32,000 bases of DNA. Origin: Deinococcus radiodurans R1 = ATCC 13939 = DSM 20539 (GTDB lineage Bacteria; Deinococcota; Deinococci; Deinococcales; Deinococcaceae). Positions 22,126 to 31,028 of the stretch are shown here, one piece after another (the stretch's first letter is position 1; every line of letters begins with the position of its first letter). The notes under the pieces are model-generated. The model saw only the letters and a list, made by a program, of their open reading frames with translations, had not been told where the DNA came from and made no database searches. Made by a program: the position numbers and the translations under genes. The stretch spans positions 1,668,602 to 1,700,601 of the forward strand of contig NC_001263.1 of the NCBI RefSeq assembly GCF_000008565.1. Direction: 5' to 3'.

Positions 22126-22785
22126 TTATTCCCCCAGATACCGCCGCAGCTCGTCGATGGAGTGCCCGGTGCCGATGACCACCAGTTTGTCGTGGGCGCG
22201 CAGCTCGTCCTCGGCGCGGGGGGTGACTTCCACATTCCCGTTGCGGCTGACCGCGATGACCTGCACACCAAAGCGGCCCGTGAGGTTGAGTTCGCGCAGG
22301 GTGCCGCGCAGTCGCTCGTTGGCCTCGATTTCGACGATGGCGTGGTCGCTGCCGAGGTCGAGCGTGTCCACGATGTTGGGGGTGGCGATCTGCCTGGCGA
22401 GGCGCACGCCCATGTCGTGCTCGGGCCGGATGATCAGGTCGGCGCCGAGGCGCTCGAGCACGCGCCGGGCCATTTCGTCGATCGCTTTGGTCACCACGTA
22501 GGGCGCGCCGAGGCTTTTGGCGTTCATGGTCGCCAGGATGTTGGCCTGCACGTCGGTGCCGATGGCGACGACCACCACGTCGAAATCGCCCACCCCGATG
22601 GCACGCAGCGCCCGTTCCTCGGTGGCGTCCACGATGGCGGCGTGGGTCACCAGGTTCATGACCCGCTCGACATTTTCCTCGGTGCGGTCGATGGCGACGA
22701 CCTCATGGCCCATCTCGTACAGGGTGGTGGCGACAGCGGTGCCAAAGCGGCCCAGGCCGATGACGAGGCACTGTTTAATCTTCAT
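22126..22785 (-). CDS. trkA: TrkA/KtrA-type K+ uptake regulatory subunit (RCK: NAD-binding N domain plus C domain)
   Basis: MKIKQCLVIGLGRFGTAVATTL (GxGxxG Rossmann) plus a TrkA_C-like C-terminal half. ATG 22785 is chosen over the track's 22806. Confidence 0.9.
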   Translation of the reverse strand: MKIKQCLVIGLGRFGTAVATTLYEMGHEVVAIDRTEENVERVMNLVTHAAIVDATEERALRAIGVGDFDVVVVAIGTDVQANILATMNAKSLGAPYVVTKAIDEMARRVLERLGADLIIRPEHDMGVRLARQIATPNIVDTLDLGSDHAIVEIEANERLRGTLRELNLTGRFGVQVIAVSRNGNVEVTPRAEDELRAHDKLVVIGTGHSIDELRRYLGE

Positions 22786-22792
22786 CGGGCTG

Positions 22793-22798
22793 AGTGTA
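22793..22798 (-). promoter_or_regulatory. -10 box TACACT, 7 nt upstream of trkA ATG 22785
   Basis: Minus strand GTGCTCTACACT-CAGCCCG-ATG. It lies between the trkH stop (22815-22817) and trkA. Confidence 0.4.
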
Positions 22799-22814
22799 GA
22801 GCACACTCACCGCG

Positions 22815-24191
<1,377 letters not shown>

Positions 24192-24204
24192 GGCCGCGCC
24201 GCCT

Positions 24205-25638
24205 TCACCCGATCAGGATGTCCCGGTCTGCCGGGTAGCGGGTAAGCATCTTTTCGGACGCCGGACGGCTGAACGCCACCGCGAAAGTCAATGGCCCGAT
24301 GCGCCCCAGGAACATCAGCGCGATGAGGACGGCTTCCTGCGCGGTGTTGAGCAGCGGCGTGGTGTTCATGCTCAGGCCCGCCGTGCCGAAGGCACTGACC
24401 GTCTCGAAAAAGAGTTGCAAGAACAGCACCTTCTTGTTGGTGTTGAGCAGCAGCATCAGCATGAAGCCCGCCGTGACCAGCCCCATGCTCAGCAGCCCCA
24501 CCGTCATGGCACGCAGAAGCGTCTCGGTGTCGATGCGGCGGTCAAAAAGCGTGGTGTCGCGCCGCCCGCGCACCATGCTCCACGCCGAGGCGACGATGAC
24601 GTAAAAGGTGTTCGTCTTGATGCCGCCGCCCGTAGAGCCGGGGTTGGCCCCGATGAACATCCACACGATGGTCATGAACAGCGCCGGAAAGCCCATCAGC
24701 CCGTAGTCGAGGGTGTTGAAGCCCGCCGTGCGCGGCGTCACGCTCTGAAACCACGATGCGAGCAGCTTGCCGTGCAGCGGCAGCGGCGCGAGCGTCCCCG
24801 GGTTGTTCCACTCGGTCAGGGCGAAAAACACGGTGCCGACCACCAGCAGCACGCCCGTCATGGTCAGTGAGAGCCGGGTATTCGTGCTCAGGCGGTTGCG
24901 GCGGCGGTCGCGCAGCCAGCCGAGCAGGTTGAGCTGCACCAGAAACCCCATGCCGCCGAAAATGATCAGCAGCGTGACCACCATGTTGATGAGCGGGTCG
25001 GACACGAAGCCCGTCAGGTTGGTGGAATAGAGGCTGAAACCCGCGTTGTTGAACGAGCTGATGGAGTGAAAAATGGCGTAGTAGATGCCGCGCAGTACGC
25101 CCTCACGCGGAATGAATGCGGGCAGCAGCAGCAGCGCCCCGAGGCCCTCAAACAGCAGCGAGGTCAGCACAATGGAGCGCACCAGCGAGGTCGCGCTGCC
25201 CAGGCTGGTCGCACTCACCTGCTGCTGCGCGTTGATGCGCCCGATGACTCCCAGCCGCCGCCGCAGCGCGAGCGCGAACAGCGTGCCGAGCGTAATGATG
25301 CCCAGCCCGCCCACCTGAATCAGCAGCAGCATGACGCTCTCGCCGAACACGTTGAAGGTGCTGCCGGGGTCCACCACCGCCAGCCCGGTCACGCACACGC
25401 AGCTCGTCGCCATGAAAAGGGCCTGGATAAAGGTGATGGACTTGCCCGCCTCGTGCGCGAACGGCAGCCACAACAGCACGGCCCCGATGAGAATGGCGGC
25501 GGCAAAGGTCAGCGCGATGAGTTGTGGGGGCCGCAGGCGCGAGGTCCAGGGGCGGCGGGTTTCCGCCGGGCGACCCGGTCCTCTTTGGCTGGCACTCTGG
25601 GAGGCCAGATCACGCGGGGCAGGGCCAGGACGGGTCAT
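24205..25638 (-). CDS. trkH: TrkH/KtrB-family K+ transporter membrane subunit (copy 2, paralogue)
   Basis: Same architecture as copy 1 (ATSCVCVTGL, GGLG, SSFNNAGF, TPRTAGF, GSTGGGIKT, AGLS). The start is placed at ATG 25638 (MTRPGPAP...). It lies 13 nt upstream of copy 1. Confidence 0.88.
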   Translation of the reverse strand: MTRPGPAPRDLASQSASQRGPGRPAETRRPWTSRLRPPQLIALTFAAAILIGAVLLWLPFAHEAGKSITFIQALFMATSCVCVTGLAVVDPGSTFNVFGESVMLLLIQVGGLGIITLGTLFALALRRRLGVIGRINAQQQVSATSLGSATSLVRSIVLTSLLFEGLGALLLLPAFIPREGVLRGIYYAIFHSISSFNNAGFSLYSTNLTGFVSDPLINMVVTLLIIFGGMGFLVQLNLLGWLRDRRRNRLSTNTRLSLTMTGVLLVVGTVFFALTEWNNPGTLAPLPLHGKLLASWFQSVTPRTAGFNTLDYGLMGFPALFMTIVWMFIGANPGSTGGGIKTNTFYVIVASAWSMVRGRRDTTLFDRRIDTETLLRAMTVGLLSMGLVTAGFMLMLLLNTNKKVLFLQLFFETVSAFGTAGLSMNTTPLLNTAQEAVLIALMFLGRIGPLTFAVAFSRPASEKMLTRYPADRDILIG

Positions 25639-25650
25639 AGAACGGGGCGG

Positions 25651-25659
25651 ATTGTAGCA
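25651..25659 (-). promoter_or_regulatory. Extended -10 TGcTACAAT, 12 nt upstream of ATG 25638
   Basis: Minus strand GGTGCTACAAT-CCGCCCCGTTCT-ATG. Confidence 0.5.
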
Positions 25660-25703
25660 CCGCGCCGGGCCAGGGCCGCGCGGCTCACATGGACCGACCG
25701 GGC

Positions 25704-25709
25704 TATACT
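25704..25709 (+). promoter_or_regulatory. -10 box TATACT, 8 nt upstream of ATG 25718 (leaderless-type promoter)
   Basis: GGGCTATACT-GCTCCGCT-ATG. No SD. It is divergent from the trkH promoter. Confidence 0.5.
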
Positions 25710-25717
25710 GCTCCGCT

Positions 25718-26836
25718 ATGCCGCGCCCCCGTTCCAACAGCAACCCCGCCTACGCCAACCGCTCGTCTGTGGGCAAAACCAGCAAAAAGAGCCGTCCCAA
25801 GGGGGACTACCGCGCCCGGCAGCCCGCGCGCGAGTACGAACTCGACGTGCTGCCGGGGCTGGAGGAGGTGGCGGCCACCGAACTTGCGGGGGTCCCGCTC
25901 GCCCGCGATGTCCGGGGCCTGCGCTTCTGGTATCCCGGCAGCCCCGAGCGGCTGACCCGGCTCCGCTCGGCGGTGGCCGTCTACCGCATCAAGTCCTGGG
26001 ACGTGCCGCGCCCGCGCGGGCTGCTCGGGCACCAGCAACTCGGCGAACTCGTCAGCTACGTGCGCGAGGTGACCGAGGTGGGCGGGCACCGCTCCTTCCG
26101 CATCGGCGCGGCGGGCAAGGAGTCACCGACCATGCAGCGGCTCGCCGAGGAACTCAGCGCGGCGCTCGGCCTGCCCCACGACCCCGAGGAAGGCGAACTG
26201 CTGCTGCGGCTGCGGCCCTCGGCAGATAGGCAGGGCGCGGACGGGCAAGGCTGGGACGTGCTCGCCCGCATTACCCCCCGGCCCCTCTCGGCGCGGGCGT
26301 GGCGCGAGTGCAACATGGGCGGGGGGCTGAACGCCACCATCGCCTACGCCATGCATAAACTCGCCGGGCAACGCGACGAGGACCGCATCTTCAACCCCAT
26401 GAGCGGCAGCGGCACCCTGCTCATCGAGCGGGCGCTGCTGGGGCCGTATGCCGCGCTCGTCGGGGTGGACATCGACCCCGTTGCCGTGGCCTGCGCCCGC
26501 ACCAACCTCAGGGCGGCGGGCAAGGAAGTGGAGGTCGCGCAGGTGGACGCGCTGCACACCGGGCTGCCTTCCCGCTCCTTTGACCTCGTCATCAGTGACC
26601 TGCCGTGGGGAGACGCCATCGGCTCGCACCAGAGCAACGAGACGCTTTACCCCGCCTTCCTCAAGGAAATGCACCGCCTGACCAGTCGCCGGGGCCGGCT
26701 GTGCCTCCTCACCCACGAACTGCGCCTGTTTGAGCGCGTCATGCGCGAGCAGAGCGACTGGGAAGCGAAGGAACTGTTTCAGGTCTACAGCGGCGGGCAC
26801 CACCCGAAGGCGTACCTGCTGCACAAGCGGGGATAG
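25718..26836 (+). CDS. THUMP-domain class I SAM-dependent RNA methyltransferase (Trm14/TrmN/RlmL-like m2G type)
   Basis: N-terminal ferredoxin-like/THUMP-like part, SAM motif I FNPMSGSGTLLIE, VGVDID, and motif IV DLPWG. Confidence 0.7.
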   Translation: MPRPRSNSNPAYANRSSVGKTSKKSRPKGDYRARQPAREYELDVLPGLEEVAATELAGVPLARDVRGLRFWYPGSPERLTRLRSAVAVYRIKSWDVPRPRGLLGHQQLGELVSYVREVTEVGGHRSFRIGAAGKESPTMQRLAEELSAALGLPHDPEEGELLLRLRPSADRQGADGQGWDVLARITPRPLSARAWRECNMGGGLNATIAYAMHKLAGQRDEDRIFNPMSGSGTLLIERALLGPYAALVGVDIDPVAVACARTNLRAAGKEVEVAQVDALHTGLPSRSFDLVISDLPWGDAIGSHQSNETLYPAFLKEMHRLTSRRGRLCLLTHELRLFERVMREQSDWEAKELFQVYSGGHHPKAYLLHKRG

Positions 26837-26886: not shown

Positions 26887-27005
26887 GCTTTTCTATTCTC
26901 TTCGAAGTTGCTGAGGGAAGCATAGCCAGCGTCCCTGACAGCGGCATGACAGCGCGGCGAGATGAAGGGGCGCCAGCCTCACGGCCCCCACATCGAACCC
27001 GGCAC

Positions 27006-28502
<1,497 letters not shown>

Positions 28503-28524
28503 GGCATGTCCTCGCAGGGAAAAC

Positions 28525-28565
28525 AAAAAAACCGCGCCTCGTTCCGGCAAGGGAAAGGGGCGCGG
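28525..28565 (-). terminator. Intrinsic terminator inside the cysS leader (attenuator)
   Basis: Minus strand CCGCGCC (28565-28559), a 20-nt loop, GGCGCGG (28538-28532), then TTTTTTT (28531-28525). Only 22 nt separate it from the cysS ATG. Confidence 0.75.
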
Positions 28566-28590
28566 CAGGGCAGATGTGCTGCTTACCGCG
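28561..28590 (-). promoter_or_regulatory. Candidate antiterminator hairpin competing with the cysS leader terminator
   Basis: CGCGG (28590-28586) pairs with CCGCG (28565-28561), and GCAG (28582-28579) pairs with CUGC (28573-28570). The 3' arm is the first 5 nt of the terminator's 5' arm. The 5' arm is the last codons of the leader ORF. Confidence 0.4.
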
Positions 28591-28615
28591 TTCGGGGGCA
28601 ACACAGGGCGTTCAT
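28583..28615 (-). CDS. Candidate cysS leader peptide, 10 codons with tandem Cys codons ([10 protein letters not shown])
   Basis: ATG AAC GCC CTG TGT TGC CCC CGA ACG CGG TAA on the minus strand. The ATG lies 7 nt after a -10-like box. Confidence 0.45.
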
Positions 28616-28622
28616 GGGAAGG

Positions 28623-28631
28623 AGGATAGCA
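28623..28631 (-). promoter_or_regulatory. Extended -10-like TGcTATCCT, 7 nt upstream of the leader-peptide ATG
   Basis: Minus strand CTCTGCTATCCT-CCTTCCC-ATG. The spacing is the same as at the other leaderless candidates. Confidence 0.35.
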
Positions 28632-28691
28632 GAGCGAGACGCAAATGCACGGTAAGGGCGGTCTAGAGCAGTGGACGGAGCAGACGCCACA

Positions 28692-29210
28692 TCACCAGCA
28701 GGCGCTTACAGCTTTCATGCCGGCGGTCAGACCCCTGGAATCGAACTGGTAACTGACCGGCACGAGGTTGCCGCCTTCGCGCATGACAGTGACCGCCACC
28801 GGGCCGTTCGCGTTGACCAGGGATTTGTAAAGCCCTCCGGACACGTCGGCGTACTCGGTTTCCCACACCGAGAACTTGCCCGTCTGCTTGTCCTTGCGGA
28901 CATATCCGGGGCCACTCGCCAGCGTTTTGCCCTGCTTGACCATCAGGAGCACGTCGGTTTCGCTGGTCGCGAGCACGTCACGCGAGTACAGGCTCATGGT
29001 GTAGCTGCCCTTGCCGTGGCACTTGAACGCCAGATAGGTCTTGCCGCTCGGGTCCCCGACAGCGTCGAAAAACACCATGCTGGTGTTCTGCCCGCCGGTC
29101 TTCTGGACCTTGTAGGACACACTGGTGCCGGGAACGCGCTGATCAGCGAGGGCTGTCCCTGCCAGGGCAGCGGCCAGAAGAAGGATTTTCCGCATGCCGG
29201 AGTAGAGCAT
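28692..29210 (-). CDS. Hypothetical secreted protein, 172 aa
   Basis: AGGAG lies 7 nt upstream of ATG 29210. Signal peptide ...MRKILLLAAALAGTALA-DQ. No family recognised. Confidence 0.6.
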   Translation of the reverse strand: MLYSGMRKILLLAAALAGTALADQRVPGTSVSYKVQKTGGQNTSMVFFDAVGDPSGKTYLAFKCHGKGSYTMSLYSRDVLATSETDVLLMVKQGKTLASGPGYVRKDKQTGKFSVWETEYADVSGGLYKSLVNANGPVAVTVMREGGNLVPVSYQFDSRGLTAGMKAVSACW

Positions 29211-29304
29211 GTGGTTGCTCCTGTCTAGAGCGGTTGCCGTGAAAGACCCTTCATCTTTTCCCTCAGATAGAGCTTCCCCTTCGCAAGTCTCGCTGCACTA
29301 GGGT

Positions 29305-30009
29305 GTGGAAGTTATGGCGCGGCCCCCCAACAACCTCACTCCTGAACCCGTTTCTCCTGTCCTCCTGACCCCCGACGGCTCGCGCACCGCCCACAACGCC
29401 CGTTACGGCGAGGCCTACGGGTCACGGCACGGAGCGCAGACGCAGGCGCATCACGTCTTTCTGGAAGGCAGCGGCAGCGATAGTGACCCGGCCCCCCGCG
29501 TTTTGGAAATTGGCTTCGGCCTGGGCGTGAATTTCCGGGCGACGCTGGCTAACACGGCGGGGCGGGGCGTTGCGCTCGATTATCTCGCCTACGAATTTGA
29601 CCCTGCCCCCGCCAACCTGCTGCGTGAAGTGGCTGAGGGTGGAGAGGGCGCCGGGCACCCGCTGTGGCCGCAGGTGTTGGGAATGTGGGGACAAGCTGAG
29701 GCGCTGGACGAGGCCGCGAACGGGGCGCGGCTGCGGGTGAAGTTCTGCGATGTGACGCGGGCCGAACTGCCACAGTATTGGGCCACCGCGCTGTATCTCG
29801 ACGGCTTTTCGCCCACGCGCAACCCGGAAGTCTGGACCCCCGACTTCGTGGCGCGGCTGGCGGGGGCGCTCGCGCCGGGCGGCGTGCTGACCACCTACTC
29901 GGCGGCGGGACACGTGCGGCGCAGTCTGGCAGCGGCGGGCCTGGATGTGGAGCGGCGGCCCGGCGCCCCCGGCAAGCGCGAGTGCCTGCGCGCCGTGAAG
30001 CCAGCGTGA
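29305..30009 (+). CDS. mnmC: tRNA 5-methylaminomethyl-2-thiouridine methyltransferase (stand-alone MnmC methyltransferase domain, DUF752-type)
   Basis: [12 protein letters not shown]...[17 protein letters not shown]...[37 protein letters not shown] parallels the E. coli MnmC N-terminal domain from memory. The start is GTG 29305 or ATG 29314. Confidence 0.8.
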
Positions 30010-31028
30010 GGGTCACCGTCATCGGCGGCGGCATCGCGGGGAGCAGCCTCGCCTATTTCCTGGCGCGGGGCGGGGCGCGGGTCACGCTGGTGGACGCAGG
30101 CGAGCACACCGCCAGCCACGTGCCCGCCGCGCTGCTCAATCCGGTGCGCGGGCAGTCGGGACAGGTGGACGCGCAGGCGCTCGCCGGGCTGGCGGCGACC
30201 TGGGCGCTGCTGGACGAACTGTCGGCGGCAGGGTTCGTTGTCCCTCACGGGCGAGAAGGCGTCCTGCGTCCACTGCCCGACGAGAAGACCCGGCGCAAGT
30301 TCGAGCGCCACCTTCCCGCCGAGCTGCCCCACGAGTGGCGCGATCCTGCCGACTGCCTCCCTGCCGACCGTCCGCTCGCCCCCGGCTGGCACGCGGCGCT
30401 GTGGTTGCCAACGGGGGGCTGGGTGGACGGACGGGCCTTTTGCACTGCGCTGCAACAGGCGAGCGGGGCCGAGATGGTGCGGGGCCGGGCCGTGCAGCGA
30501 GGCGACGAATGGCTGCTGCAAAACGGCGAAGACCTGTCTCCTCTCAACCGTCACCCTTCAACCATCATCCACTGCGGCGGGTCCATCGGCTCCACCTGGG
30601 CCGGCGAAACACGCACCCACCGCATGGGCACCATGCTGCTGCTCGACCGGGCACCGACCGCCTCTCCCCTCAGCTTCGGCGCTTACCTCTCCCCCACCGC
30701 TGAGGGCGGGGCGCTCGGCGGCACTTTCGAGGCACCCCGCCCAGCGTGGCAGGAGCCGGCGCTGCCGTTCGCCTCGCTGCACTGGCTGCTCGGCAAGGGT
30801 ACGGCGCTGACCAGTCTGCGCGGCCTTCAGGTGACGGGCCGCTGGACCGGCTCGCGGCTGAGTGGACTGCAAGTGGGGCAGGATGAGGCAGGCCACTGGC
30901 ACCTCAGCGGCCTGAGCAGCAAAGGCTTTTTGCTGGGGCCGCTGCTCGCCCGTGAGCTGGCGGAGCAGGTTCTGAGCGGTCAGAAATGGTCGGAGCAGGG
31001 CGCTGCGCCCGCGTCACACCTCCGGTAA
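30006..31028 (+). CDS. FAD-dependent oxidoreductase (DAO family), probably the MnmC oxidoreductase domain as a separate protein
   Basis: GTG 30006 overlaps the upstream TGA (GTGA). The N-terminus [32 protein letters not shown] is a dinucleotide-binding fold. I reject the track's 29778 extension, which overlaps the previous gene. Confidence 0.7.

Follow-up and report, generated by a model that had tools for sequence, protein, structure and literature searches.

The window analysed here, a 32-kb stretch of the Deinococcus radiodurans R1 genome, carries on its minus strand the gene cysS for cysteine--tRNA ligase. Directly in front of it lies a leader of about 91 nt, measured from the predicted transcription start site (TSS) to the end of a U-tract, with a 10-codon open reading frame (ORF), two adjacent Cys codons and a set of overlapping hairpins that make it a candidate transcription attenuator of cysS. 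All elements were read on the minus strand and are listed below in window coordinates.

28631-28623, minus strand: extended -10-like promoter box TGcTATCCT (TGCTATCCT), with its TATCCT core at 28628-28623 and the leader ATG 7 nt further on
A28615, minus strand: predicted TSS of the leaderless leader
28615-28583, minus strand: leader ORF of 10 codons, ATG AAC GCC CTG TGT TGC CCC CGA ACG CGG TAA, as read from the sequence
28603-28598, minus strand: adjacent Cys codons TGT TGC of the leader ORF
28605-28575, minus strand: predicted helix P1 (the "1:2" anti-antiterminator), in which UGUGUUGC (28605-28598) pairs with GCAGCACA (28582-28575)
28590-28561, minus strand: predicted antiterminator ("2:3"), in which CGCGGUA (28590-28584) pairs with UGCCGCG (28567-28561)
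28582-28579 and 28573-28570, minus strand: inner helix of the antiterminator, GCAG pairing with CUGC
28565-28532, minus strand: intrinsic terminator ("3:4"), CCGCGCC (28565-28559) and GGCGCGG (28538-28532) with N20 between them, plus inner pairs, free energy (dG) -19 kcal/mol
28531-28525, minus strand: U7 tract closing the terminator
28513-28509, minus strand: Shine-Dalgarno (SD) sequence GAGGA of cysS, with the ATG 6 nt further on
27006-28502, minus strand: cysS, the presumed regulated gene, cysteine--tRNA ligase of 498 aa (Pfam tRNA-synt_1e, DALR_2 and CysS_C)

The identity of the cysS product is given by its Pfam domains (tRNA-synt_1e at E=1e-113, plus DALR_2 and CysS_C) and by 88-89% identity to the CysS proteins of D. 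lacus, D. proteolyticus and D. piscis, the closest named relatives. A first-pass annotation, made from the letters of this DNA only, had proposed a leader-peptide attenuator at this place. Its -10 box, 7-nt gap, mini-ORF, alternative hairpin, terminator, U7 and GAGGA all lie on the minus strand where it had read them, and so does the cysS ATG (28502-28500), which follows the U-tract by 23 nt instead of the 22 nt given there. Cys is indeed a rare amino acid, as it had assumed, accounting for 0.8% of codons in 13 window genes. When both strands of the window were scanned for a -10 box followed after 5-8 nt by a start codon, an ORF of <=35 codons, a strong hairpin and a T-run, this was the single site with such a layout. 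A sigma-70 consensus scan of 27000-30000 detected no promoter-like site, a result that fits an extended -10 promoter with a weak -35 region and argues against a second promoter before cysS.

No stop codon occurs on the minus strand between a GTG at 28604 and the cysS ATG at 28502, and a mechanical ORF list contains a 532-aa ORF (27006-28604) running through the terminator and half of the leader ORF. With such an in-frame opening, gene callers could place the cysS start too far upstream and mask the leader.

The equivalent leader of D. deserti has been described before. Using differential RNA sequencing (dRNA-seq), de Groot et al. (2014, Genome Biol Evol 6:932, PMC4007540, Fig. 6) mapped the TSS of D. 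deserti cysS exactly at the A of the leader AUG and described the cysS mRNA as leadered from this point. The leader peptide has 10 aa with two Cys, attenuation was proposed by the authors, and it belongs to a set of 14 leader peptides in this species (PMC4007540). The first-pass annotation knew of no described leader-peptide attenuator for cysS in Deinococcus, a statement that this publication overturns. A coding sequence (CDS) of 10 aa directly before cysS is already present in the D. deserti gene calls (CP001114.1, locus L081, 1880-1912). Both leaders consist of TGCTAnnCT, a 7-nt gap, ATG, a 10-codon ORF with TGT TGC, GCGG-UAA, a CCGCGCC terminator and a U-tract, with cysS coming next. The -10 box and the 7-nt spacing of the window are identical to those of D. 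deserti, where the TSS was mapped. The two leaders share 67% identity over the aligned region with all functional blocks kept, and the CysS proteins share 79%. On sequence grounds, the window element is an orthologue of a published, TSS-mapped, predicted attenuator and is not novel. The peptide, the -10 box and the TSS are named in the passages of that paper concerned with cysS; antiterminator and anti-antiterminator helices, spacing rules and cross-species conservation of RNA structure are not described in these passages.

Folding of the 101-nt leader gave a z-score of -3.5, and 0/200 dinucleotide shuffles folded as well. The minimum free energy (MFE) structure of the free leader combines P1 with the terminator, and not the alternative hairpin of the first-pass annotation. 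Both hairpins of that two-structure scheme are present; what it had missed is a third helix, P1, between the Cys codons and the stop-codon region. One arm of P1, UGUGUUGC, spans both Cys codons, and the other, GCAGCACA, sits right after the UAA stop. The antiterminator has GCAG in common with P1 and CCGCG in common with the terminator. Because it overlaps both, the three helices are predicted to be mutually exclusive in the classical 1:2, 2:3 and 3:4 arrangement.

To describe the states of the switch, nascent RNA of 15 leaders (the window and relatives presented below) was folded as it would be before the 3' arm of the terminator is made, with nucleotides covered by the ribosome blocked. For the leading edge, a position of +15 relative to the first P-site nucleotide was used, a value taken from E. 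coli toeprinting and profiling and not measured in Deinococcus. When the A site holds the first Cys codon (Cys1), the antiterminator is the MFE structure in 15/15 loci, at -10 to -22 kcal/mol; in the window, where nt 1-24 are blocked in this state, its dG is -15.5 kcal/mol. When the A site holds the stop codon, the antiterminator is lost in 15/15, and the best remaining structure has -0.1 to -7.5 kcal/mol. In nascent RNA upstream of the terminator, nucleotides of the Cys codons pair with the stop-codon region in 15/15 loci. The antiterminator is also more stable than region-2 shuffles in every one of these loci (window z = -3.1, mean z = -1.9, p < 0.07 in 9 loci).

The position of the antiterminator relative to the Cys codons follows a simple rule. 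Counted from the first nucleotide of Cys1, the antiterminator 5' arm begins after 13-15 nt in 13/15 loci, just past the leading edge of the modelled ribosome that holds Cys1 in the A site. This spacing holds though Cys1 sits at nt 13, 16 or 28 in different leaders. A caveat raised at first reading, that a ribosome stalled on the Cys codons may also cover the antiterminator arm, is largely resolved by this for Cys1 and persists for the second Cys codon.

Conservation was assessed in 15 further Deinococcales cysS loci, found by one genome scan and ten exact-protein look-ups, in which CysS identity decreases from 89% to 60%. The scan compared proteins with genome contigs and returned 80 loci, candidates being selected by pattern, which is why no more than 5 of them are from Deinococcota; the other 75 were reused as a negative control. 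The same layout (TAnnnT box, 6-7 nt, ATG, short ORF, antiterminator/terminator pair, T-run) was observed in 14/15 further loci. Adjacent Cys codons, 2-3 in number, are present in 13 of the 14 further leaders, or 14/15 with the window included. The predicted peptides, including those from metagenome-assembled genomes (MAGs), are as follows.

D. piscis: MNALCCLPTR
D. proteolyticus (L082): MNALCCP
D. navajonensis: MTALCCPRLR
D. deserti (L081): MTALCCPSTR, the called 10-aa CDS
MAG bin2 (L003): MTTLCCLP
MAG118 (L004): MTALCCLPTR
Deinococcus sp. (L083): MTALCCLPPR
D. sonorensis: MFRPACCLSMR
D. radiomollis: MFRPVCCPPMR
D. peraridilitoris: MTAIACCCS
Deinococcaceae MAG (L086): MRPTDMFCCCRIF
Deinococcales MAG (L005): MNLTTPSSLCCRP
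metagenome contig (L088): MKPAVACCAAPCSPRAA
D. maricopensis (L084): MTFSACSSL, with one Cys only

Outside the Cys codons the peptide is variable (MNAL.., MTAL.., MFRP.., MRPTDMF.., MKPAVA..), and conservation appears to concern codons rather than a protein. The nucleotide block CCCTGTGTTGCC is kept even at synonymous sites, which fits a dual role as Cys codons and P1 arm. Genes upstream of the leader vary by species and are often on the opposite strand (LysR regulator, aminotransferase, AI-2E transporter, polyprenyl synthase, major facilitator superfamily transporter); the varying neighbours indicate that the element belongs to cysS. A GC-rich hairpin with a T-run stands at the equivalent place in 15/15 loci, with differing stem extensions, and the distance from the U-tract to the cysS ATG ranges from about 20 to >130 nt across species.

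In most leaders (window, L001-L005, L081-L086, L208 and L209), the first Cys codon is TGT. The ratio of TGC to TGT is 35:10 in 13 window genes, so TGT is the less used codon. The preference for TGT is consistent with its role in the P1 5' arm, or with selection for a slowly decoded codon.

A MAFFT alignment of 12 leaders (A1) has invariant blocks TA...T, ATG, TGTT, GCGG, CCGC, GCGG and the T-run, and the GCGG/CCGC core of the antiterminator is unchanged in 12/12 sequences. Cells of P1 and the terminator are paired in 84% of cases, compared with 25-53% in slid controls, and those of the antiterminator in 76%, compared with 21-51%. Compensatory changes in P1 and the terminator are few and include one terminator stem position changed from CG to UA. 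From the MAFFT alignment RNAalifold recovered a consensus of just 11 pairs, a poor result that reflects an alignment made without regard to structure.

The Cys-Cys mini-ORF was detected at 14/16 Deinococcales cysS loci and at 9/74 loci from other phyla (Fisher p = 9e-9, with loci that are phylogenetically related). The 9/74 control loci with a CC-containing mini-ORF <=350 nt upstream equal the reverse-strand background of nine (12%). Those inspected in other phyla (L046/L057, L073/L075) were rejected as out-of-frame readings of upstream genes or chance ORFs. Also rejected as chance matches were 119 stretches recovered with the pattern ATGANNNCCCTGTGTTGC in a metagenome-wide search, none of which has a CysS homologue downstream or a Deinococcus-like context.

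Three-way complementarity is retained with different sequences in three divergent lineages, the metagenome contig L088, the Deinococcaceae MAG L086 and the Deinococcales MAG L005.

L088: antiterminator CUCGAGCGG / CCGCUCGAG; terminator CCGCUCGAG / CUCGGGCGG
L086: antiterminator GCGGCCG / CGGCCGC; terminator GCCGC / GCGGC
L005: antiterminator GCGUGGCG / CGCCGCGU; terminator GCCGCGUUGGAG / UUCCAGCGCGGC

We observed that the palindrome CTCGAG is recurrent in and around the cysS leaders of L005 (about 1760-1960) and L088 (about 1780-1990), where it supplies P1 and antiterminator arms. One possibility is a repeated, lineage-specific motif that the switch has co-opted.

The most probable interpretation is a trpL-type, ribosome-mediated transcription attenuator on a leaderless transcript, which senses charged tRNA-Cys and controls read-through into cysS. 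The proposal of a Cys-codon leader-peptide attenuator for cysS made at first reading is supported in this form by the mini-ORF, Cys codons, GCGG/CCGC core and terminator kept in 15 Deinococcales loci. The sequence elements, their conservation and spacing and the predicted mutually exclusive structures are established, together with the TSS at the AUG of the D. deserti orthologue; stalling at the Cys codons, the efficiency of termination and the response to cysteine are inferences. Transcription would start at A28615, 7 nt past the extended -10 box, so that the mRNA opens with the AUG of the 10-codon ORF and a 70S ribosome loads at its 5' end. When Cys-tRNA is plentiful, the ribosome would reach the UAA (nt 31-33 of the mRNA), covering CGCGG (nt 26-30) and GCAG (nt 34-37). 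The antiterminator would then be blocked, and the terminator (nt 51-84 plus U7) would fold and stop transcription about 23 nt before the cysS ATG. When Cys-tRNA is scarce, the ribosome would stall with UGU (nt 13-15) in the A site and cover roughly nt 1-24, melting P1 (Cys codons paired with GCAGCACA) and leaving CGCGGUA..GCAG free. The freed segment would pair with CUGC..UGCCGCG, which is the terminator's 5' arm, and RNA polymerase would read through into cysS. With no ribosome, P1 would form first and favour termination.

Several results weigh against this interpretation. The leader of D. maricopensis has a single Cys codon, and the cysS locus L087 has neither a Cys mini-ORF nor a terminator upstream. 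At first reading it had been proposed to check relatives for the CC-containing mini-ORF and for compensatory changes in both hairpins; the mini-ORF is conserved and the terminator has its CG to UA change, but covariation in the antiterminator is not significant, its score being reached by 307/500 shuffles, and the four core pairs never vary. Such invariance of the core is expected where one strand must pair with two partners, and is no proof. The antiterminator z-score is weaker than -1 in 6/15 loci, and the modelled footprint depends on the E. coli leading edge. Stalling one codon later, on the second Cys codon, would bring the first 2-3 nt of the antiterminator arm under the ribosome, with dG in the window reduced to -9.7 kcal/mol. 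In most loci, full-length RNA at equilibrium prefers the terminator even with a ribosome at Cys1, a preference that requires a kinetic switch like that of the trp attenuator. Finally, the literature searched yielded only the 2014 prediction and no Deinococcus data on premature termination or a cysteine response.

We considered three other explanations, each of them much less likely than an attenuator. If the hairpin and U-tract were incidental, control could be translational, either because the position of the ribosome on the mini-ORF remodels the RNA and with it the access to the ribosome-binding site (RBS) of cysS or because the mini-ORF raises cysS translation through reinitiation. Precedents exist in the leaderless Cys small ORFs (sORFs) of mycobacteria, which act by RBS sequestration with no terminators (bioRxiv 10.1101/834739), and in a reinitiation role proposed for leader genes (PMC4833913); furthermore, the cysS SD lies only 12-16 nt past the U-tract. 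This explanation is nevertheless improbable. The canonical GC-rich stem and T-run are kept in every one of the 15 loci, the changing distance between U-tract and ATG makes a fixed structural link to the SD unlikely, and predicted folds contain no pairing that sequesters GAGGA within the transcript.

The same features could belong to an independent small gene, encoding a small RNA of ~90 nt or a small Cys peptide with its own terminator, and cysS would then be transcribed from a separate promoter. The Sinorhizobium leader RNA rnTrpL and peptide peTrpL have functions in trans (PMC6614838, PMC7298713), and in several species the gap between U-tract and cysS is 70-130 nt, enough room for a promoter. 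In the window, however, just 23 nt separate U7 from the ATG and the sigma-70 scan of 27000-30000 is empty. For D. deserti, the published account has cysS transcribed as a leadered mRNA that starts at the leader AUG (PMC4007540). The element moreover accompanies cysS whatever the neighbours are, and the peptide is unconserved beyond the Cys codons, which together make an independent gene highly improbable. Least credible is a chance mini-ORF in front of a hairpin and U-tract that terminate the upstream ORF (28692-29210). That ORF of 172 aa shares the strand of the hairpin and stops 127 nt short of it, but in other species a different gene, or one in the opposite orientation, precedes the leader and terminator, which are retained. 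The Cys-Cys mini-ORF in 14/16 loci against a 12% background and the lack of a second such arrangement in the scan of the window are also at odds with chance; this explanation is effectively refuted by comparative data.

The attenuator can be extended to a more ambitious scheme, which we regard as improbable. The Deinococcales cysS leader would be a minimal SD-less attenuator of ~90 nt, with the 70S ribosome on a 5'-terminal AUG as the sole sensor. The 13-15-nt spacing and the rarer TGT would tune the kinetic switch and couple the supply of cysteinyl-tRNA synthetase to cysteine/thiol (bacillithiol) status under oxidative or radiation stress. The terminated RNA or the Cys-Cys peptide could possibly also act in trans, like rnTrpL/peTrpL.

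Three loci depart from the common pattern. In D. maricopensis (L084, about 1897-1926; CP002454.1), TGT is followed by TCT, one base off TGT, and the leader retains the -10 box, P1, antiterminator and terminator; this natural variant could show how many Cys codons the switch needs. In D. proteolyticus (L082, about 1825-1848), a TGA replaces the CGA of relatives and leaves an ORF of 7 codons (MNALCCP*). This leader no longer has the GCAGCA arm of P1; a ribosome modelled at the new stop still covers the GCGG arm of the antiterminator. L087 (1700-2000; JGI metagenome 3300033990 contig) encodes a CysS that is 63% identical, and a short GGGGG...CCCCC hairpin adjoins its SD. Its cysS 5' region, folded in search of an alternative structure, gave z = -0.5, no better than shuffles. 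The leader is not universal among relatives.

Other features of the window were also recorded. The ORF at 1844-2947 on the plus strand matches BshC (Pfam PF10079, 2.5e-49), the enzyme that adds cysteine during bacillithiol biosynthesis; it represents another cysteine-consuming function, at a distance of 26 kb from cysS and without a visible regulatory connection to it. On the plus strand within 29305-31028, a Methyltransf_30 ORF (29305-30009) overlaps, in a different frame, an ORF for an oxidoreductase dependent on flavin adenine dinucleotide (FAD) of the DAO family (stop-to-stop 29700-31028). The two resemble an MnmC-like pair for tRNA modification, split or made of two genes; alternatively, they could be explained by a frameshift. 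Two tandem TrkH-family genes (24205-25749 and 22815-24212) followed by a TrkA gene (22126-22806) on the minus strand are a duplicated arrangement of the membrane subunit for potassium uptake.

The window adds one more orthologue to the element reported for D. deserti in 2014. What goes beyond that report is conservation throughout Deinococcales, an explicit three-helix model and the spacing rule of 13-15 nt from Cys1 to the antiterminator, and the comparative model and the rule make the 2014 prediction directly testable. The leader would show how an organism with mostly leaderless mRNAs builds an amino-acid-sensing attenuator without an SD sequence. The element lacks an Rfam family, and cysS ORF calls that extend too far easily absorb it; its curation would improve annotation.

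The closest general model is the ribosome-mediated attenuator of the E. coli trpL / hisL / pheL type (Yanofsky 1981). The window leader has in common with this type a short ORF whose tandem regulatory codons correspond to the controlled pathway, a region 2 masked by the ribosome at the stop codon, and three overlapping helices (1:2, 2:3, 3:4) that close with an intrinsic terminator. It differs in that its ORF is leaderless, with no 5' untranslated region or SD, and the ribosome is expected to load on the 5'-terminal AUG. Furthermore, the element is very compact, at about 91 nt, and the regulatory codons themselves form the 5' arm of 1:2. Its target is an aminoacyl-tRNA ligase gene and not a biosynthetic operon, with pheM-pheST as the closest parallel.

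In Firmicutes, a T-box before cysS / cysES senses the charging of tRNA-Cys by competition between terminator and antiterminator. Unlike the window leader, it has no leader peptide and binds the tRNA directly. The window and five orthologous loci gave no match at gathering score to a T-box or any other Rfam family, and 28300-28900 searched at E up to 10 gave only chance-level matches to nrdJ and isrG; known leaders, which the first-pass annotation had wished to see excluded with Rfam, are set aside by these searches. Deinococcales cysS would then be controlled by a leader peptide rather than by a T-box.

Mycobacterial polycysteine sORFs (Canestrari et al. 2020, bioRxiv 10.1101/834739; predicted earlier by Seliverstov et al. 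2005, PMC1262725) resemble the window leader in being leaderless and in sensing cysteine supply through ribosome stalling at Cys codons. They differ in preceding operons of cysteine metabolism instead of cysS, in having longer Cys runs and no intrinsic terminators, and in acting on translation by unmasking a downstream RBS. RBS sequestration of this kind is not what the window leader displays, with its conserved intrinsic terminator and a GAGGA that is unpaired in predicted folds.

The uORFC-8-2 motif, located before cysS in Rhodobacterales and also proposed to act by attenuation (Brewer et al. 2021, RNA Biol, PMC8632094), is similar in having an upstream ORF (uORF) with two tandem Cys codons, a first stem that holds these codons, and a terminator stem with a U-run. 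It comes from a different phylum, its uORF is longer and has the Cys codons at positions 14-15, and leaderless initiation is not stated for it. With no sequence relationship detectable between the two and no Rfam match above chance level at this site at E up to 10, uORFC-8-2 and the Deinococcales leader are probably a convergent solution.

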